A stretch of DNA of 59,297 bases from Deltaproteobacteria bacterium (GCA_021737325.1 JAIPED010000002.1:1-59297), one strand, 5' to 3'. Shown: positions 1,312-38,677, counted from the stretch's first letter. Numbers and translations: made by a program. Notes: generated from the sequence alone by a model not told the origin.

Positions 1312-2991
1312 TTACTTCGGGAATAGCGCAAAGTGTAACCTTGCTTTTGACATCGGCAAATTGTTTTTCGTGCGGGTCGTCGCCAAGCGAAAAAACATAA
1401 GTGTTAAAATGCCCCTTGATTTTTTAATCGCTTTTTTGAAATCATCTATCGCTTCCTCGTAAAAAACAATGCCGAGGTATTTATCGCTGTTTTTGAAAAT
1501 TTTAAAATCGCTTTCGTCCTGCACCAATTCAAAGGCGTTTTCACGAATACAAAGCATTTCCGTTGATTCATTAACAAGTTTCCGCTTGTTTCTGTCTGTC
1601 GGCTCGGCTTCCACAAAGTCGCAAGTGTAATACTTCAAATTGCCGCCAAGCCCAGCGACATTTTCGCCTTTTAGATTTTTATGTCCTTTTAAAACTTTCT
1701 TTATTCTAGGATAGCAAACTTCTGTACAAATATTATTCTCATTATTTGTGCAAAGAATGAACTGACGACTTCCCTTATCTTCTTGATTAAGGTCCAAAAC
1801 TGCATGTCCGGTTGTACCTGACCCTGCAAAAAAATCTAAAATAACAGCATTACTTTCTGCACCATATCTTAAAAAGAATTTTATTAACTCGGTTGGTTTT
1901 GGATTTTCAAAAATGTCTTTCTTGCCAAAAATTTCTGTCAATTCATTTGTCCCGTCTGCTGTCGTGGCTAAATCGTATAAAATGCTTCGTTCCTTAATTT
2001 TTTTTATAGTTTCTCCGTCAAAATAGATTTTTTCATAAGGAATCCAACGACCATTTTTTTCTTGCCAAAAGACTAGGTCTTTCTCAATCAACATATCCAT
2101 GCGCTTTTTGCCAACTCTCCAACGCCCATCTCCACCGTCTGGCGCAATAGGATAAATATTTTTACCGTTAGGAGCTTTGATTGGAAAATACATTTTGGGA
2201 CGGTCTTCTCTCCTTGCGGTATTGCCCCATTTTGCTAGTTTTACGGCAGTAAATTTTCCGCGTTCATCTTTTTTGTTAAATTCTGATTCACTAACTGGGA
2301 TTTCTTCATCTTTCCATGCAAAATTTTCTGATTTCGCATAAACAAGGATATATTCATGCTCTGTAACAAAGTATGAATCAGCTTGGCCGCCGCCTTCTTT
2401 TTTTCTCCATATCAACGCACCAACAAAATTTTTGTCTCCAAATATTTCATCGCACAAAAGTCTTAATGGTGCTTGTTCTATATTATCTATGCTTATAAAA
2501 ATGGCTCCTTCTGGTTTTAATAAATTTTTAGCAAGCTTTAACCTCTTTTCCATAACAGAGAGCCATTTACTGTGTCTAAATGGATCTTCGCTATCAACAA
2601 ATTTATCATTGTAGCGAAAATCATTTCCGCCTTTTACACCGCGGTTATACGGAGGATCAATGTAAATCAAATCAACAGCTTCTTGGTGCGTAAAATTCAA
2701 AACGGCAAGCGAATGATAATTGTCGCCTTCAATCAGCAGATTAACTGGCTTGCCTTTTTCGCCGTTTATTTCTTTGCCTTTAACTTCTTTCAAAATCGGA
2801 AACGGTTTGCCCGCCATTTCATTGGGGAACATTTCGCTCGGCGTTCGCGCGTCGGGATTGATGAGAATATCAATTTTTTCTTCCGGCAAGTTCCTATGCC
2901 AAACAAGGCCGTATTTCGTCTCTTTGATACGGCGAAGCTCTTTTATCAATTCCTCTTTTGACCAATTGTCGTAATTTATTTTTCTTGCCAT
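1312..2991 (-). CDS. mod: Type III (beta-class) DNA methyltransferase Mod subunit, with the C-terminus apparently frameshifted
   Basis: IYIDPPYN (motif IV) lies upstream of FFAGSGTTGHAV (motif I), which is the beta-class order typical of Type III Mod. The gene sits directly upstream of res on the same strand. The last 37 aa of the track ORF look out of frame (see finding). Confidence 0.85.
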   Translation of the reverse strand: MARKINYDNWSKEELIKELRRIKETKYGLVWHRNLPEEKIDILINPDARTPSEMFPNEMAGKPFPILKEVKGKEINGEKGKPVNLLIEGDNYHSLAVLNFTHQEAVDLIYIDPPYNRGVKGGNDFRYNDKFVDSEDPFRHSKWLSVMEKRLKLAKNLLKPEGAIFISIDNIEQAPLRLLCDEIFGDKNFVGALIWRKKEGGGQADSYFVTEHEYILVYAKSENFAWKDEEIPVSESEFNKKDERGKFTAVKLAKWGNTARREDRPKMYFPIKAPNGKNIYPIAPDGGDGRWRVGKKRMDMLIEKDLVFWQEKNGRWIPYEKIYFDGETIKKIKERSILYDLATTADGTNELTEIFGKKDIFENPKPTELIKFFLRYGAESNAVILDFFAGSGTTGHAVLDLNQEDKGSRQFILCTNNENNICTEVCYPRIKKVLKGHKNLKGENVAGLGGNLKYYTCDFVEAEPTDRNKRKLVNESTEMLCIRENAFELVQDESDFKIFKNSDKYLGIVFYEEAIDDFKKAIKKSRGILTLMFFRLATTRTKNNLPMSKARLHFALFPK

Positions 2992-2995
2992 AGGA

Positions 2996-3211
2996 TTATT
3001 TGATTAAATCATCAACGCCGACATTCAATGCTTTGGCGATTCTCGTTAGCGTTTCAATGGTTGGATTCGGGTTTGCGCCCGATTCGACCGTTACGACCGT
3101 GTTGAGCGACAAACCCGCCAGTTTGGACAGGAGGTCTTGCGAGATGCCTTTTTCTTGGCGCAATTTCTTTAGGTTTTTGCCGATCTTTGACTGGGGATTA
3201 TTGTTTGACAC
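2996..3211 (-). CDS. XRE-family helix-turn-helix regulator (controller-like protein of the R-M operon)
   Basis: 71 aa, with LKKLRQEKGISQDLLSKLAGLSLNTVVTVESG, a typical HTH_3/XRE pattern. It has a GTG start, and its stop lies 4 nt before the mod start. Confidence 0.75.
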   Translation of the reverse strand: MSNNNPQSKIGKNLKKLRQEKGISQDLLSKLAGLSLNTVVTVESGANPNPTIETLTRIAKALNVGVDDLIK

Positions 3212-3350: not shown

Positions 3351-3438
3351 TGGCGGAGAGAACAGGATTCGAACCTGCGTAGAGTTTCCCCTAACACGCT
3401 TTCCAAGCGTGCGCCTTCAGCCACTCGGCCATCTCTCC
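3351..3438 (-). tRNA. tRNA-Ser (anticodon GGA), 88 nt, CCA encoded
   Basis: The reverse complement folds as a class II tRNA. Acceptor stem is GGAGAGA/TCTCTCC and the T-arm is GCAGG-TTCGAAT-CCTGT. The anticodon stem-loop is CACGC-TTGGAAA-GCGTG. It has a long variable arm and ends GCCA. Confidence 0.93.
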
Positions 3439-3466
3439 GTTTTATGCGACACGGATATAAACCAAC

Positions 3467-3560
3467 TGGCGGAGAGAGGGGGATTCGAACCCCCGTGGGG
3501 GCTTTTGACCCCCAAACCGATTTCGAGTCGGTCCCGTTACGACCACTTCGGTACCTCTCC
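3467..3560 (-). tRNA. tRNA-Ser (anticodon CGA), 94 nt, CCA encoded
   Basis: Acceptor stem is GGAGAGG/TCTCTCC (one G-U pair) and the T-arm is GGGGG-TTCGAAT-CCCCC. The anticodon stem-loop is ACCGA-CTCGAAA-TCGGT. It has a long GC-rich variable arm. Confidence 0.93.
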
Positions 3561-18372: not shown

Positions 18373-19797
18373 GTGGGAAATAATGTTTCAGCAATTTTGC
18401 AGAGTCTTCCCAAGATGGATGATTTATTAGGCGGTGTTAAGGATGAGCTTGGTTCTTTGCTTTCCATCGCGGTTATTAAGCGCCTCTGTCAGCAGGTGGT
18501 TAGCAAAAAGCGTGAAGAGCTACTCGCGGAGATGACCGCAGCAGGTTCCCCCACCATCCTCAAATCTAAAGAAGAGCTCCGCGAAGCGATCATTGGGGAA
18601 GTCATGTTTCTTGCCACATCACTGATAAATCCTCGCCTCAAACGAGTTATTAACGCCACGGGGGTTGTGCTACATACCAACCTGGGACGCTCCCCCTTGA
18701 GCGCCCGTGCCCTTTGTGGGGTTGTGGCGAGTGCCATGGGATATTCCAATCTAGAGTTTTCTCTAGAAGATGGCAAACGGGGGTTGCGCTATGACAATCT
18801 CAGAGAATTGATTTGCTCCATAACGGGGGCCGAAGATGTAGTGGTTGTGAACAATAATGCCGCGGCAGTTATGCTCATTTTGGATACCATAGCGTTTGGC
18901 AGGGAAGTTATTGTGTCTCGTGGAGAGCTGGTGGAAATAGGCGGTGGTTTTCGCGTTCCTGATGTGATGAAAAAAAGCGGCGCCTTGCTCAAGGAAGTGG
19001 GCACCACCAACCGTACCCACATTGATGATTATGCACGGGCGCTAACATCCAGCACGGGGCTGTTGCTTAAGGTGCACGCCAGCAATTTTAAGATGGTGGG
19101 TTTTTGCAATGATACTCCGCTATCAGAATTGGTTGCTTTGGGCAGGGAGCATCGCATTCCTGTTGCCTACGATGTCGGTAGCGGGAGTCTTGTCGATCTA
19201 TCACGGTACGGGATAGAAGGGGAACCGATGCTGGCCGAGATATTGGCTTCGGGGGTGGATGTTATTTCCATCAGTGGTGATAAGCTTCTCGGCGGGCCAC
19301 AGGCTGGCATCATTTTGGGCAAGCGGGAAGTTATCCAAACGATCGCCCAAAACCCGCTCAACCGTGCTTTGCGGGTGGACAAGCTCACCCTTGCGGCGTT
19401 GGAAGGAACACTCATTGATTATCTCCAAGACGAAGAGGTTGTTTGTCAAAGTATCTATCCTTTGCGTTACATTTCTCGGACTCCTGCATTTCTCAAAAAA
19501 GAGGCACGCATTCTGACGAAGACGATAAAAAAAAGCTGCGGCAATAAATTTTCCTTGGAAGAGTTAGCGGGTAAATCCTTTGCCGGTGGTGGTGCTCTTC
19601 CTGGCTACGAGCTTGATTCCATCCTTGTTGCTCTAGAAAATGCAACATTAACTGCGGAGCAAATAGCCACAAAATTACGAATGGCGGAAGTTCCCGTTAT
19701 CGTTAGAGTGGCCAATGATAAGGTTCTTTTCGACCTCAGAACGCTGGAGCAGGATGACTACGCAGAAATCGCCTTGGCGTTATGCGAGTTGTTGTAG
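18373..19797 (+). CDS. selA: L-seryl-tRNA(Sec) selenium transferase
   Basis: HTNLGRS and the PLP-lysine motif ISGDKLLGGPQAGII; about 470 aa. Confidence 0.9.
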   Translation: MGNNVSAILQSLPKMDDLLGGVKDELGSLLSIAVIKRLCQQVVSKKREELLAEMTAAGSPTILKSKEELREAIIGEVMFLATSLINPRLKRVINATGVVLHTNLGRSPLSARALCGVVASAMGYSNLEFSLEDGKRGLRYDNLRELICSITGAEDVVVVNNNAAAVMLILDTIAFGREVIVSRGELVEIGGGFRVPDVMKKSGALLKEVGTTNRTHIDDYARALTSSTGLLLKVHASNFKMVGFCNDTPLSELVALGREHRIPVAYDVGSGSLVDLSRYGIEGEPMLAEILASGVDVISISGDKLLGGPQAGIILGKREVIQTIAQNPLNRALRVDKLTLAALEGTLIDYLQDEEVVCQSIYPLRYISRTPAFLKKEARILTKTIKKSCGNKFSLEELAGKSFAGGGALPGYELDSILVALENATLTAEQIATKLRMAEVPVIVRVANDKVLFDLRTLEQDDYAEIALALCELL

Positions 19798-25940: not shown

Positions 25941-26918
25941 CTATCGAGCTATCCGAATTCGCGGATCTGCATAGGCGTAAGCAATATCGGCAAGAAGATT
26001 TCCTAGTAGCGTAAGCAATGAGCCGATGACGAGAATGCCCATAATTGTGGGGTAGTCGCGTGCCATTACCGCAATGTAGAAGAGTTGTCCCATTCCAGGG
26101 AGGGCAAATACCGTTTCTAAGATGACACTGCCGCCAATAAGACCCGGCACGGAGAGCCCCAGTATTGTAATAACGGGAAGAAGCGCATTGCGCAACGCAT
26201 GTTTGAAAATGATGGAATTTTCGCTAATCCCCTTTGACCTTGCTACGGTGATGTAATCTTGCCGAATAACTTCCAGCATATTGGAACGCATATATCTTGA
26301 TAATCCCGCCAAACCGCCGAAGACCGCAACGAAAAGGGGTAGAATCAGATGCTTGCCGAAGTCCAGAATGCTTGCCAGGGGTGAAAGGTACTCGTGGTTT
26401 AGCGAACGAAGTCCTGAAATTGGTAACCATCCCAATTCTACGCCAAAAAACCTCATTAAAATTAGCGCTAACCAGAATGAGGGGACCGCCAAACCGAGGA
26501 ATAAAAGCACGCTAACGGTATTATCAAAGATAGAGTTTTGCTTGATTGCGGCGGTAACGCCAAGGGGCACCGCGATAATGAAAATTACGACCATCGCGCC
26601 AAGATTAAGGGCGATGGTAACGGGAAGCCGCTCCGCAATTTTATCAATGACCGGTCTTCTGTCCGTTGAAAAAGATTTTCCAAAGTCCAGTGTAATAGCT
26701 CTTTGTAGCCAGAGCCAGTATTGTTCATAAAGTGGCTTATCAAGGCCATACATCACCGTCATCCTTGCTTGCGCTTCTGCCGATGATCTGGGGTTGAGCA
26801 TTGTTTCCATATCCGTTGGCTTTCCTGGTGCCAAATGCATGACACCAAAGCAGATAATGGATATTCCCAAAAGCAAGGGAAAGATCATTACCAGTCTCTT
26901 CAAGAGATATTTTTTCAT
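25941..26918 (-). CDS. ABC transporter permease, DppB/OppB (peptide/nickel) family, with no partner genes nearby
   Basis: N-terminus MKKYLLKRLVMIFPLLLGISIICFGVMHLAPG and EAA-loop region ARSKGISENSIIFKHALRNALLP; 325 aa. Confidence 0.85.
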   Translation of the reverse strand: MKKYLLKRLVMIFPLLLGISIICFGVMHLAPGKPTDMETMLNPRSSAEAQARMTVMYGLDKPLYEQYWLWLQRAITLDFGKSFSTDRRPVIDKIAERLPVTIALNLGAMVVIFIIAVPLGVTAAIKQNSIFDNTVSVLLFLGLAVPSFWLALILMRFFGVELGWLPISGLRSLNHEYLSPLASILDFGKHLILPLFVAVFGGLAGLSRYMRSNMLEVIRQDYITVARSKGISENSIIFKHALRNALLPVITILGLSVPGLIGGSVILETVFALPGMGQLFYIAVMARDYPTIMGILVIGSLLTLLGNLLADIAYAYADPRIRIAR

Positions 26919-26944: not shown

Positions 26945-29158
26945 TTAAAAGCGTTTATATCGTATCAGGAGCGAATTGGAAACAACGCTGAAAGAAGAGA
27001 AGCTCATCGCAATTGCCGCCAACATGGGGTTAAGCAAGAATCCAGTGAAGGGATAGAGTACCCCCGCTGCGATGGGTATTCCCAGTATATTATAACAAAA
27101 TGCCCAAAACAAATTTTGGCGAATTTTGCGGCGAATGTAAGCAGAAATATCTATTGCCACGGCTACATCTGTTATCTTGCTACGCATCAGAACAATGTCG
27201 CCAGTTTCAACGGCGATGTCCGTTCCCTCAGCCAGAGCGATGCCCAAATTCGCCTGCGCTAGTGCGGGCGCATCGTTAATCCCGTCACCAACGAATGCCA
27301 CTCTTAATCCCTTGGCTTGTAATTCCTTAACCAAAATAGCCTTGTTTGCGGGGAGCGTTTCGGCAAAGACTTCATCAATGCCAACCAAGCGAGCTATGCC
27401 TTGGGCGATTTCCTGCTTATCGCCGCTAACCATTGCTATCCGTTTACCCATTTGATGCAAATTGCCTATCGCTTCTTTTGCTTCTGCTCTGATTTCATCG
27501 CGTATTCCGAAGATGCCTAATAAAGCACCGTCGCATGCGAGATAAAGAGGGCTCTCTCCCGCACACAATAACGCTTCAACAGTGCCACGGGATTCGAGAG
27601 GAATGCTGCAGGAATTAGCCAGCAATAGCCGTTCGTTGCCCAGTAGCACCGTCTTTTCTTCACTATCCGTTCCGGTAATACCCATCCCTTCCCACTCGCG
27701 AAGCGTTGTAAGACTGGGCGAAACAAATCCCTTATCACCAGCGTAGGTAGCAATGGCCATCGCGAAGGGGTGTTTTGAGGTTGCGGCGAGGGAAAGAGCC
27801 TTCTCAGTAATATGCTTATCTGTAAGCCCGCCAAGGGGTAAAACTCGCGCCACGATTGGAATTCCCGTGGTTATCGTTCCTGTTTTATCAAACAAAACAA
27901 TGTCAATCTGCCGTGCGGTCTCCAAGACCGACACATTTTTTATTAAAATTCCCCGCTCGGAAGCCCTTCCCACCCCAACCATAATTGCTGTGGGCGTTGC
28001 CAGACCAAGAGAACAAGGGCAGGCAATGATTAAAACGGAGACCATTGTTGTAAGCGCAAACGGGAAATCGTATCCCGCAAACAGCCAGAAGGCAAAAACA
28101 CTCAGGGCGAGAGAGATGATGATGGGAACGAAGTAGAAGGAAACTTTGTCGGCCAAAACCTGTATGGGGGCCTTGGAGGCGAGGGCGTTATCGACAATTT
28201 TTATGATTCCTGCAAGCACGGTTTCCGCCCCTACCCGCCTTACGGCGAAGCGAAACGGACTTGTTTTATTGATCGTGCCGCCAACCACGGACTCTCCAAC
28301 GGCTTTGGCGATAGGAAGACTTTCTCCCGAAATCGCGCTCTCGTCAACCGTGGTTTGCCCTTCAATGACCACACCATCAATCGGAATTTTTTCCCCTGGA
28401 CGCACCAACAAGATATCTCCATAGCGGAGCTCCGCAACTGGTACCTCCACGAAGCCATCTCCCCGCAGGAGAGTGGCTGTTTTGGGTTGCAGCGCAAGAA
28501 GGTTCCTAATTGCTTCTCCCGCCCGACCTTTAGTTTTGGCTTCTAAAAATTTGCCCAAGGAAATGAAGACTAAAATGATACCCGCACTTTCAAAATATAC
28601 ATGCGCATTCTGATAGGCGGCGGGATGTACCCAGATAAAAATGCCCATAGTTAGACTATAAAGATAAGCGGCTACGGTGCCGATTTCCACGAGGCTATCC
28701 ATGTTGGGATTTCTGCTTAAGAGCTTTTTAAAGCCCGAAATATAGAGGTTCGCGTTAACCAACATGATGGCCGTGGTTAGCAATAGTTGCAGGATGATAT
28801 TGGTGCGTAAGGTAACGGAAGGCAAAGGCAGGTGGAGCATTTCGCCCATCGCCAGGTAAAATAACGGAGCTCCCAGGAGGAGGGAAAGGAGAAAGCGCTG
28901 TTTTAGATAGCCTATTTCATCTTCACTGTGCGTAGTGGCTGTATCTGTCGCATCGCCAACATCAAAGCCCTTTCCTCTGATAATTTTAGCGATTCCGTCA
29001 AAAGTAATTAAGTTACTGTCAAATTCAACGGTTGCCTTAGCGGATGCAAGGTTTATCCTCGCCGTTAGAACGCCCTGTGTTTGGTTTAGCGCCGCTTCCA
29101 AGCGTGCTGAACAGGAGGCTCAGGTCATTCCCCGTATGATTATTTCTCTCTTATCCAT
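26945..29158 (-). CDS. copA: Cu(I)/Ag(I)-type P1B heavy-metal ATPase with selenocysteine in the N-terminal HMA motif (GMT-U-ASC)
   Basis: [12 protein letters not shown] is followed by an in-frame TGA (29122..29120), then [17 protein letters not shown] continuing into the 718-aa track ORF. Motifs present: [22 protein letters not shown]-x4-P and MSFSS. An alternative start is ATG 29170. A SECIS-like hairpin lies 11 nt after the TGA. Confidence 0.85.
29088..29108 (-). promoter_or_regulatory. SECIS-like stem-loop for copA
   Basis: Minus strand AGCACGC-UUGGAA-GCGGCGCU gives a 5-bp stem with a bulged A. It begins 11 nt 3' of the UGA. Confidence 0.5.
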
Positions 29159-29211
29159 GCATCCTCCCATTGTAACTGCTATCCATAGAAATGGCGAAAA
29201 AGCAACAGCAG

Positions 29212-29237
29212 CTACGGAGAAGTTTCCTTCTCCGTAG
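29212..29237. terminator. Perfect 26-nt palindrome CTACGGAGAAG-TTTC-CTTCTCCGTAG between the hcp stop and the copA start
   Basis: 11-bp perfect stem with a 4-nt loop. On the minus strand it is followed by CTGCTGTTGCTTTTTC. It is either the hcp terminator or an operator for copA. Confidence 0.5.
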
Positions 29238-29252
29238 TACCTTAAGAGCAAG

Positions 29253-30887
29253 CTACTTGGTTGCCAGAATGTCGTTGAGATCTTTCTCGGCGCTGGTGAT
29301 AGGCTGTATCGCGAAGTTTTCCACCAACACATTCAGGATGTTGGGGGTAATAAAGGCCGGGAGGGAGGGTCCCAAACGGATGTTCTTTATTCCCAAATGA
29401 AGCAGGGTAAGCAACACGGCAACCGCCTTTTGTTCGTACCAAGAAATTATCAAGGATAGGGGGAGCTCATTTACTCCCACACCAAAGGCTTGCGAAAGAG
29501 CCAATGCGATGCGTATTGCCGAATATGAATCGTTGCATTGTCCAACATCCAGCAGACGGGGTATTTCGCCGATTTTCCCCAGATTTTTATCAAAGAACTT
29601 GAACTTACCACATCCCAGGGTGAGAATAATGGTGTCCGGCGGGGTTTTTTCAACAAACTCACTGAAGTAGTTACGCGAAGATTTTGCCCCATCGCAACCG
29701 CCAACCAGGAAGAAATGCTTTATCTGTCCCGATTTCACCATGTCGATAATGGTGCCTGCAATGGATAAAACCGTGTTGTGCCCAAAACCCGTTAGCACCG
29801 TGCCAGCATCTGTGTCCTCGCTAAATCCAGGGAGCTCATTGGCCCGCTTAATCACGGCGGAAAAATCGTTTTCTACGATATGGGGAATGTTGGGAAAACC
29901 CACACAACCGCAGGTAAAGATGTTATCTCTGTAAGATTCTTCAGGTTTTTGCAGACAGTTCGTCGTCATTAAAATGGCACCGGGAAAGTGGGCGAATTCT
30001 TTTTGCTGGTTTTGCCATGCGGTTCCGTAGTGGCCATAAAAATGCGAATACTTTTTTAGCTCAGGATACGCGTGGGTTGGCAACATCTCCCCATGGGTGT
30101 AGATGGTGATTCCCTTGCCTGCAGTTTGCTTTAGCAACTCCGCCAGGTCCTTAAGATCGTGCCCGGAAACCAAAATGGCCTTTCCTTTTTTCGCGCCCAG
30201 AGGAACAGAGGTGATAACGGGATTGCCGTAGGCGGATGTGTTTCCCGTATCCAACAATTCCATGGCCTTGAGGTTAATCTCTCCACAGCGCAAAACCAAG
30301 GTCAGAAGCTCGCCAACCCCAATATCTTTGCGTTCCGTTGCGCAAAGTGCCTCAAAAATGAAATTATAGATGCCTTCATCCTCTTTGCCCAAGATTCTTG
30401 CGTGGTTAGCATACGCGGCAACTCCCTTTAAACCGTAGATTAACAACTCCCGCAAGGATACTAAGTCAGGCTCTAACAAAGGATTATCCTTTATGCCAAA
30501 GCGAGAGCCTTCCGCGACAAGCTCGGAGAGTGTTGCCTTGGCGGTTATCGTAATGGTGCCATTGCCGTAGCTTTTGTCCCCCGCGCTTAAGATTGCTTTT
30601 TCCATTTCTTCGCGGAACTTCGCGGATCGTTTGTTGAAAGCAACAAAACGGTTAGCGTCAAAATTGACATTCGTCAGCGTGGAAAAAAGTGCTTCCAAGA
30701 CAAAGGCCTGCAATTCTGGGGAAGGCTTTATGTGCCATTGGCGGCCAGTAACGACGGCTTCCGACAGTGTTTTCAACGATTTGATTAACAGATCCTGTAG
30801 CGCCGCGATATCTGGCTCTTTACCGCACACTCCAATTTTTGTGCACCCTTGCCCTTTTGCTGTTTGCTCGCATTGATAACAAAACAT
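29253..30887 (-). CDS. hcp: Hydroxylamine reductase / hybrid-cluster protein
   Basis: N-terminal MFCYQCEQTAKGQGCTKIGVCGK; about 544 aa. The track ORF starts 8 codons earlier, at a GTG. Confidence 0.92.
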   Translation of the reverse strand: MFCYQCEQTAKGQGCTKIGVCGKEPDIAALQDLLIKSLKTLSEAVVTGRQWHIKPSPELQAFVLEALFSTLTNVNFDANRFVAFNKRSAKFREEMEKAILSAGDKSYGNGTITITAKATLSELVAEGSRFGIKDNPLLEPDLVSLRELLIYGLKGVAAYANHARILGKEDEGIYNFIFEALCATERKDIGVGELLTLVLRCGEINLKAMELLDTGNTSAYGNPVITSVPLGAKKGKAILVSGHDLKDLAELLKQTAGKGITIYTHGEMLPTHAYPELKKYSHFYGHYGTAWQNQQKEFAHFPGAILMTTNCLQKPEESYRDNIFTCGCVGFPNIPHIVENDFSAVIKRANELPGFSEDTDAGTVLTGFGHNTVLSIAGTIIDMVKSGQIKHFFLVGGCDGAKSSRNYFSEFVEKTPPDTIILTLGCGKFKFFDKNLGKIGEIPRLLDVGQCNDSYSAIRIALALSQAFGVGVNELPLSLIISWYEQKAVAVLLTLLHLGIKNIRLGPSLPAFITPNILNVLVENFAIQPITSAEKDLNDILATK

Positions 30888-30952
30888 CTTTTTCCATTCC
30901 TCCCTTTTCACTTTGATGACATGGGCTTTAATGCTTGCGGACCAAAGGTTCC

Positions 30953-37417: not shown

Positions 37418-38677
37418 GTGAAAAAAAACGGTCGTATCGCATTATCCGTGCTGGCATTTTTTAGCTTTGCGGGGTTTATTTTTTTAGTAACAGATACTCT
37501 TGCCAATCAGACTAAGGATAGTAGTTGTGTTCGTTGCCACACCAATGCAGAAACTCTACAGCAACTACATATTGTTGATCCCAAGCTGTTGGAGCCCGCG
37601 GGGGAAGGGTGAGCGGGAGCGCCTCCGGCAGTTAAGCCGGAAGAAATGTATCGTGGCTTTCTAGTTGATGGGCGTTTGGTTGATTCCGATCCCCATTTTG
37701 CCAAAGGTTGCCAAGCATGTCATGGTGGTAATCATACCGCCGAAGCCAAAGAAAGCGCCCATGTCGGTTTGAATAAAAAGCCTTCCAGAAATCTGGCTAC
37801 ATGTGGCGAGTGCCATAAAGGTATAAGTGAAAAATTTTCCACCTCACTCCATTACACGAGCCATGGTCAAAAAATGGGGGTGAAGCCTCGCTTCAACGAG
37901 GGTGAATTCAAACACTTTGAGGAAAAGATTTTTGAACAGAGTTGTCGCAGTTGCCATGCTTCTTGTGGCGATTGCCATGTTAAAGGGGCACCTGTCAGTG
38001 GGATTAGCATTGGACTAATTGAGGGGCACAAGTTTATCCGTAAAAACGAAGAAAAAACCTGTGCCTTTTGCCATGGCGGTCGGGTTTATACCGAGTTTAC
38101 GGGAGAATATGGTGGTTCGCCTGATGTTCATTTCACGAAAGGAATGCAGTGTCTTGATTGTCATCAGCAGATGCACGGAGATGGCACCCTGTATAATAGC
38201 AAACAGGAAGTGAAGAGCCGCCCCAAATGTTCTAACTGCCATAACATGGCAGCTTCCGATTTGAGCGTTAGGCTCAGAACAATTCATGGGATTCATCAAG
38301 AAAAAGCGAGCTGTTATGCCTGCCATGCCGATGGCAACTACCGCAATTGCTACTCTTGCCATGGTGGACACTCAGAGGCCCAGCCAGGGTTTATTCTTGG
38401 GAAAAATCCCCGCAACACTGGACAGCTAACCACCCTGCGGGTTATTCCCACGCTTAACGATACCTTTACGAAGCAAGGATTGAATATGTCCAATTTCGAT
38501 GCCCTCCCCAACTATTGGGATAGCCCCGTGCACGCCATAAAAAAGAAGACGCGGCGCACCCGAGATTGTGATGCTTGTCATGTGGATAGAAGGAGCTTCC
38601 TTGAAGAAGGCGAATTAATCGAAGGTGGTGCGAAGGCCAACAAAGAGTTAATACCAAGCATAAAGCCGATAAAATAA
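37418..38677 (+). CDS. Undecahaem c-type cytochrome with an in-frame UGA (selenocysteine) after the first haem motif
   Basis: GTG start and an N-terminal signal/anchor ALSVLAFFSFAGFIFLV. There are 11 CxxCH motifs. TGA at 37610..37612 is in frame with the 343-aa track ORF, in the context EPAGEG-U-AGAPPAVKPEEMYRG. The downstream ORF alone has no signal peptide. A SECIS-like hairpin lies 11 nt after the TGA. Confidence 0.75.
37622..37643 (+). promoter_or_regulatory. SECIS-like stem-loop for the cytochrome
   Basis: TCCGGC-AGTTAA-GCCGGA (6 bp, extendable by one more pair across a mismatch). The core stem starts at 37624, 11 nt 3' of the TGA. Confidence 0.55.

Follow-up and report, generated by a model that had tools for sequence, protein, structure and literature searches.

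An in-frame TGA in the metal-binding motif of a deltaproteobacterial CopA-type ATPase gene: a probable selenocysteine codon

Does a TGA codon at the first metal-binding position of a copper pump end the protein, or does it encode selenocysteine (Sec, U)? The question is raised by a P-type ATPase gene on a contig of 59,297 nucleotides from a deltaproteobacterium (GCA_021737325.1, JAIPED010000002.1:1-59297), which was analysed over its whole length and is called the window here. The gene lies on the minus strand, as do all of its features given below, and extends over positions 26945–29158 if the TGA is read through. Judging from its sequence and its homologues, it very probably encodes a CopA-type pump of 737 residues in which Sec takes the place of the first metal-binding cysteine of the N-terminal HMA domain.

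Reading frame and metal-binding domain

The read-through coding sequence has 737 codons, one of them the TGA, before the stop. It opens with an ATG at 29158–29156, after which 12 codons lead to the TGA (29120–29122), the proposed Sec codon at residue 13; from there the frame remains open to a TAA at 26947–26945. Translation bears out a first-pass annotation of this DNA, which had the upstream in-frame open reading frame (ORF) ending at this TGA and the read-through motif as GMT-U-ASC, in which U replaces the first Cys of GMTCxxC: the codons after the TGA, GCC TCC TGT, give A-S-C and continue in frame into SARLEAAL. A Shine-Dalgarno sequence, GGGAGGA (29162–29168), has its GGAGG core 4 nt before the ATG, and comparable GGAGG-type sites precede other genes of the window. 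ORF callers use a TTG at 29099–29101 as the start, which is Leu20 of the read-through protein, has no Shine-Dalgarno sequence upstream and yields an ORF of 718 residues. The public protein entry for the gene (P0001) is the same 718-residue truncation, as the first-pass annotation had predicted for automated annotation, and has no PF00403 (HMA) match. The next in-frame ATG is codon 104, well beyond the HMA domain. A longer start at ATG 29332 (an in-frame ORF of 70 residues) was considered and rejected: it overlaps the end of hcp, it is not HMA-like, and the homologues, which are 725–760 residues long, start at the position matching ATG 29158.

With the TGA read through, PF00403 is covered at profile positions 2–62 of 62 (E = 1.2e-13), and together with CopZ-like NCBIfam matches this defines an N-terminal HMA metal-binding domain at residues 1–67 (28958–29158). 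The called 718-residue ORF covers profile positions 17–62 only, in line with the earlier remark that it opens within the HMA fold at a Leu and lacks the metal motif. Only read-through completes the match, which supports this reading of the gene. According to NCBIfam, the read-through protein is a heavy-metal P-type ATPase (TIGR01525, 599.3 bits, cut-off 346.25) of the copper-translocating kind (TIGR01511, 570.3 bits, cut-off 397). The CPC transmembrane metal site (C380-P381-C382 in ACPCS, 28013–28021), the DKTGT phosphorylation motif with D424 (FDKTGT, 27875–27889), the YN-x4-P motif (YNILGIP, Y689 to P695, 27074–27094) and the M-x2-SS motif (MSFSS, M718 to S722, 26993–27007) are all invariant in an alignment of 30 homologues. 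These include the three signatures that had been taken as those of Cu(I)/Ag(I) exporters, and a P1B-1 (CopA-type) Cu(I)/Ag(I) ATPase is thus the identity that the sequence supports. The catalytic motifs are all intact and the rest of the gene is free of decay. In common with CopA-type P1B-1 ATPases the protein has these four motifs and a single N-terminal ferredoxin-like HMA domain; it differs from them in the TGA that stands for the first metal-binding Cys. Against the E. coli CopA model NF007952 it scores 586 bits, short of the cut-off of 1316, as expected for a distant relative with one HMA domain.

All of the 30 closest homologues, which are 49–58% identical to the window protein, have a Cys in the column of the TGA, the first Cys of GMxCxxC, and the coding sequence is conserved to either side of it. 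This alignment, which the first-pass annotation had proposed with CopA orthologues, establishes the correspondence of Cys and TGA. The nearest homologue, P0002 (58% identical), has TGC at the aligned codon, reads MADERTDLNIVGMN-C-ASCAAHLEAAL (NIVGMN before the Cys) and has an N-terminus of equal length. The close relatives are therefore not the HMA-less ATPases starting at an internal Leu that the same annotation had envisaged as an alternative.

Sec decoding weighed against other readings

A Sec codon presupposes a host that inserts Sec. The window carries selA, the gene for L-seryl-tRNA(Sec) selenium transferase (18373–19797, plus strand; PF03841), which scores 550.7 bits against the equivalog model TIGR00474 (cut-off 267.9) and lies 9 kb away from the ATPase gene within the same contig. 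Another gene of the window, the probable selenoprotein gene for an 11-haem cytochrome c described below, likewise has an in-frame TGA, which its relatives keep; this implies a working Sec system. TGA is the normal stop of 13 of the 48 genes of the window and, apart from the ATPase and cytochrome genes, interrupts no long gene, so that the genetic code is standard with Sec recoding; a variant code was rejected on the same grounds. The gene content (BamA, Lpx genes, cytochrome c maturation, Hcp and rubrerythrin) and the relatives of the lysyl-tRNA synthetase (LysRS), which come from Syntrophales, Smithellaceae and Deltaproteobacteria at 64–71% identity, place the host among Syntrophales-like anaerobes.

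The first-pass annotation had also pointed to a bulged stem-loop beginning 11 nt after the TGA, and a hairpin resembling a selenocysteine insertion sequence (SECIS), AGC-A-CGCU[UGGA]AGCG-GC-GCU, is indeed present there (29088–29108), with an energy of about -7 kcal/mol. Its apical loop, UGGA (29100–29097), is located 23–26 nt from the U of the UGA, and the TTG used by the ORF callers falls inside this apex. The position of the hairpin and its G-containing loop match those of other Sec-type HMA genes. We compared the energy of hairpins centred 24–26 nt from the U of the UGA in 75 Sec forms and 155 Cys forms, the latter taken from the same loci and from metagenomes. The means are -12.1 and -8.9 kcal/mol, respectively (p = 6e-6), and the window, at -13.2 kcal/mol with a sharp minimum at 23–26, beats 61% of the Sec forms, while only 21% of the Cys forms reach its value. 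The best hairpin is centred at columns 21–28 in 72% of the Sec forms vs 48% of the Cys forms, and a G occupies column 24, as it does in the window, in 47% and 17%, respectively. The local RNA features thus modestly favour the Sec type and are no proof.

Several results weigh against Sec. Neither selB nor selD nor a tRNA-Sec gene was found within the 59-kb window. In the protein database no close orthologue with TGA was found, the best homologues (at most 58% identity) being all of the Cys type, and the best metagenome relative of the window protein is only 47% identical. The hairpin is no more stable than dinucleotide shuffles (z = 0.13), its synonymous recoding gives no significant difference (p about 0.21–0.25), and the centred-hairpin energy of the Cys-type P0002, -13.0 kcal/mol, nearly equals that of the window. 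RNAalifold returned no consensus structure for 76 of the Sec-type HMA sites considered below, because their hairpins lie in different registers. A search with Rfam, over the whole window at gathering thresholds and at the site with E-values up to 10, returned only two tRNA-Ser genes. Recoding likewise gives no significant result for the hairpin of the cytochrome gene (p = 0.19), even though that hairpin is kept in homologues and shows a compensatory change; tests of this kind are therefore low-powered, and their non-significance is uninformative here. The SECIS modelling suggested by the first-pass annotation thus gave a divided answer: position and GG loop are typical of the family, while the structure is not statistically distinguishable from chance. 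We regard the hairpin as compatible with Sec insertion, not as independent proof of it.

Could the TGA have arisen recently by a nonsense mutation of TGC or TGT in a Cys-type copA, leaving a pseudogene or an internally started pump without a working metal-binding domain? From TGC a single step suffices, the nearest homologues all have Cys, no TGA orthologue was found in the lineage in either the protein database or the metagenome scan, and the hairpin is stronger neither than chance nor than that of the Cys-type homologue. Such a mutation could also be tolerated if the N-terminal domain were dispensable, and the N-terminal metal-binding domains of CopA proteins often are dispensable for transport. 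However, the gene offers 220 single-nucleotide routes to a stop, with just one of them at the Cys13 codon, so that a random nonsense hit would fall here about 0.5% of the time. For comparison, one of the 80 metagenome relatives sampled for the window protein is a Sec-type HMA ATPase (L125, reading GMN-U-ASC), or roughly 1%, and among Sec users the share of such forms should be higher. An internal start is further disfavoured by the lack of a Shine-Dalgarno sequence at TTG 29101 and by the position of the next ATG past the HMA domain, while a pseudogene fits poorly with a gene that shows no decay elsewhere and keeps its catalytic motifs. Replacement of Cys by U at this site is moreover seen in at least 76 HMA domains elsewhere, and the host has both selA and another conserved TGA-containing gene. 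A nonsense mutation is therefore unlikely in our estimate.

The remaining two explanations are, even jointly, very unlikely. A sequencing or assembly error hiding a true TGC or TGT is conceivable for a metagenome assembly with a single contig lineage, yet it must have struck exactly one base, in a family that often has TGA at this site, and over 22,157 nt, TGA included, the Logan assembly of SRR12088349 shows no difference, though it may share reads; we hold it to be highly improbable. Decoding of UGA as Trp, Gly or Cys, through a variant code or near-cognate read-through, would be suggested by the Patescibacteria or candidate-phyla labels of many top ATPase homologues, as some of these lineages recode UGA. 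The host, on the other hand, is a cytochrome-rich Gram-negative with BamA and Lpx genes whose LysRS is closest to those of Syntrophales and Deltaproteobacteria, TGA ends 13 of its 48 window genes without interrupting other long ones, and the base composition around the ATPase gene is unremarkable, which leaves this explanation barely credible. Sec is favoured over all of these because of selA, the second TGA gene, the Shine-Dalgarno sequence at ATG 29158, the intact motifs and the identical second assembly.

Recurrence, origin and possible function

To place the gene among its relatives, we scanned one genome per species for the pattern G-M-T-TGA-x-x-C-x3-[hydrophobic]-E, which returned at least 120 loci. 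Genuine HMA domains reading GMT-U-xxC number at least 76, and at least 47 of them are followed by 500 or more residues of P1B ATPase. Among the matches listed, UASC, the tetrapeptide of the window protein, is the commonest, with at least 30 of the at least 76 sites. The cultured sources are Paraclostridium, Caloranaerobacter, Tissierella, Clostridium tanneri, Thermohalobacter and Fusibacter; metagenome-assembled genomes (MAGs) of Dehalococcoidales, Chloroflexota and Ca. Aquicultor contribute others.

A UxxC family of cation-transporting E1-E2 ATPases has been tabulated as a predicted selenoprotein in surveys since 2007 (PMC1976440), and the Global Ocean Sampling (GOS) study counted one Sec sequence and 882 Cys homologues for it (UxxC, pfam00122; PMC2398784). 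Reviews of 2022 and 2026 list the family as TIGR01525, UxxC, with ABB15669.1 (PMC9312934, PMC13188914), and the latter places it under the high-confidence predictions, not under the experimentally verified ones (PMC13188914). The first-pass annotation was thus right in recalling that such ATPases appear in selenoproteome surveys, and it overstated the novelty of the gene. Being a TIGR01525 protein with U first in the CxxC of its HMA domain, the window protein is an unannotated addition to a known predicted family and no new category; such a member would be no surprise to a selenoproteome specialist. It shares with the listed family the heavy-metal P1B architecture, the position of Sec and the dominance of Cys homologues. 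It differs in its host, which is Syntrophales-like and deltaproteobacterial, whereas the Sec ATPases recovered here come mostly from Clostridia, Dehalococcoidia, Chloroflexota and Ca. Aquicultor. In the literature searched, no biochemical characterisation of any Sec-containing HMA domain was found.

A related group comprises the small CopZ/MerP-like U proteins described by NF041115 ('UxxU metal-binding (seleno)protein'), which have the same fold and the same Sec metal loop as the HMA domain of the window protein. The latter scores a weak 36.9 bits against this model (cut-off 95); in contrast to these small proteins, its HMA domain is fused to a pump and has U at the first Cys alone, giving UxxC where they have UxxU. 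Stand-alone GMT-U-xxC HMA proteins also occur among the genome-scan matches listed. Sec-type HMA loci that do not encode ATPases read GMT-U-DGC (L033, L034, L055, L101 and L119) or GMT-U-GGC/EGC (L023, L075, L042 and L053). A conserved non-ATPase group, mostly from Acidobacteria-labelled MAGs, reads EEKTITFSVEGMT-U-DGCARSVEQALKE and continues for about 200 residues downstream, and short, secreted-looking Sec-type HMA proteins are found in Planctomycetes (Mariniblastus) and Pyrinomonadaceae. In a locus from Tissierellia (L032, 7025–7264) two Sec-type HMA sites are 200 nt apart, the first in a CopZ-like ORF and the second in the ATPase.

Where did the Sec of the window protein come from? The protein shares about 45% identity with the Sec-type ATPases recovered and 50–58% with Cys-type proteins. 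Because it is closer to the Cys forms than to the Sec forms, its Sec probably stems from an independent Cys-to-Sec switch. The narrower claim, that this switch was recent and took place within a CopA clade whose other known members use Cys, we consider to be evenly balanced between true and false. The organism of P0002 appears from its LysRS (71% identical) to be the closest relative as well. Neither the protein database nor the metagenome scan nor the contig of the nearest relative yielded anything above 58% identity or any synteny.

The genomic setting of the ATPase gene differs between the two organisms. In the window it is flanked by hcp and by a lone gene for an ABC-type permease (BPD_transp_1, 25941–26918), while in the nearest relative (region 10001–14256 of L206) the orthologue adjoins a gene for a TonB-dependent receptor. 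Many of the nearest ATPase homologues are labelled Patescibacteria or candidate phyla, while the host is a Syntrophales-like Gram-negative. The differing neighbours and these labels suggest that the gene may be mobile. A foreign origin was considered for it and rejected, as its base composition shows no anomaly.

How might the protein be made, and what might Sec contribute to it? We infer the following steps from what is established about Sec decoding in bacteria and about CopA proteins. Translation would begin at ATG 29158 behind the GGGAGGA ribosome-binding site; at the UGA (29122–29120) the hairpin located 11 nt downstream would recruit SelB with Sec-tRNA(Sec), Sec13 would be inserted and translation would go on. 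In the folded domain, Sec13 and Cys16 of the β1-α1 loop would bind Cu(I) as a selenolate-thiolate pair with a roughly linear Se-Cu-S arrangement. By analogy with other CopA proteins, the HMA domain may act as a receiver or sensor of cytosolic Cu(I) and regulate the turnover of the pump, and transport would proceed through the CPC, YN and MxxSS transmembrane sites and the phosphoenzyme cycle at D424. At physiological pH a selenolate is in the deprotonated state, and as a ligand it is softer than a thiolate. One may speculate that it speeds metal capture in a sulfidic, reduced cytoplasm; metal specificity and any advantage of Se over S are presumed, like Sec insertion itself and SelB binding of the hairpin.

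Sec in an HMA domain would be among the few cases in which selenium serves as a metal ligand of a transporter and not in a redox enzyme, and the window gene would add a Gram-negative, Syntrophales-like example that is probably of independent origin. If the recent switch is real, the window protein and P0002 form a natural test of the role of selenium in a non-redox metal-binding site, where possible effects are a tighter or faster capture of Cu(I), Ag(I) or Hg(II), or function under sulfidic anoxic conditions. The practical value is a corrected annotation and this natural Sec/Cys pair. With a public entry of 718 residues that has no metal-binding motif, inventories of metal resistance in anaerobes of this kind will miss or misdescribe the ATPase, and the same truncation error likely affects dozens of species.

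A second TGA-interrupted gene and neighbouring features

The second interrupted gene, which encodes an 11-haem cytochrome c (37418–38677, plus strand), has its TGA at 37610–37612. From a GTG at 37418 the frame specifies a signal anchor and a CVRCH haem motif, and its 64 codons end with EPAGEG before the TGA. The sequence after the TGA, AGAPPAVKPEE, runs straight into a called multihaem ORF of 343 residues that lacks its own signal peptide, and the read-through motif is GEG-U-AGAPPxVK. Homologues are mostly called truncated at the same place (120 listed of 432 matches, E <= 1e-10). Two homologues (73% and 61% identical), read at the DNA level in four loci from independent assemblies, retain the TGA together with the frame before it and the hairpin after it. 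Related loci are L202 (2390–3637), L204/L205 (about 1790–3038), L208 and L209. The stem of the hairpin shows a compensatory change, CCGGC/GCCGG vs CCGCC/GGCGG.

The few full-length cytochrome homologues have W, S, R, A or Y at the TGA column, not Cys; in two of them, seen at the DNA level, the codons are CGA and TCA, each one step from TGA. Downstream of the cytochrome gene are rhodanese genes and a cytochrome c/b fusion, and this synteny is conserved. We compared the protein with the Sec cytochrome MccSep/ExtKL, which has 5 haems and a Sec near the C-terminus (PMC13510729). This identity was rejected: there is no NCBIfam ExtKL match, and both the number of haems and the position of Sec differ. 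None of the NCBIfam models was matched, nor any for a Sec cytochrome, and the only hits were weak ones to ExtM, ExtN and ExtO far below cut-off. From the conserved frame and TGA, the gene is probably a second selenoprotein gene, and it may represent an undescribed selenoprotein family.

Between hcp (29253–30911) and the start of the ATPase gene lies an 11-bp inverted repeat without mismatches around a GAAA loop, CTACGGAGAAG-GAAA-CTTCTCCGTAG (29212–29237, minus strand), followed by a T-run 9 nt later. It is probably the terminator of hcp, or possibly an operator; a terminator scan did not call it. A candidate promoter just upstream of the ATPase gene, TCGCCA-17-TACAAT, was discarded, as the count of such sites is below chance expectation. 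The two tRNA-Ser genes, with GGA and CGA anticodons, are adjacent (3351–3560, minus strand) and are the sole tRNA genes of the window.

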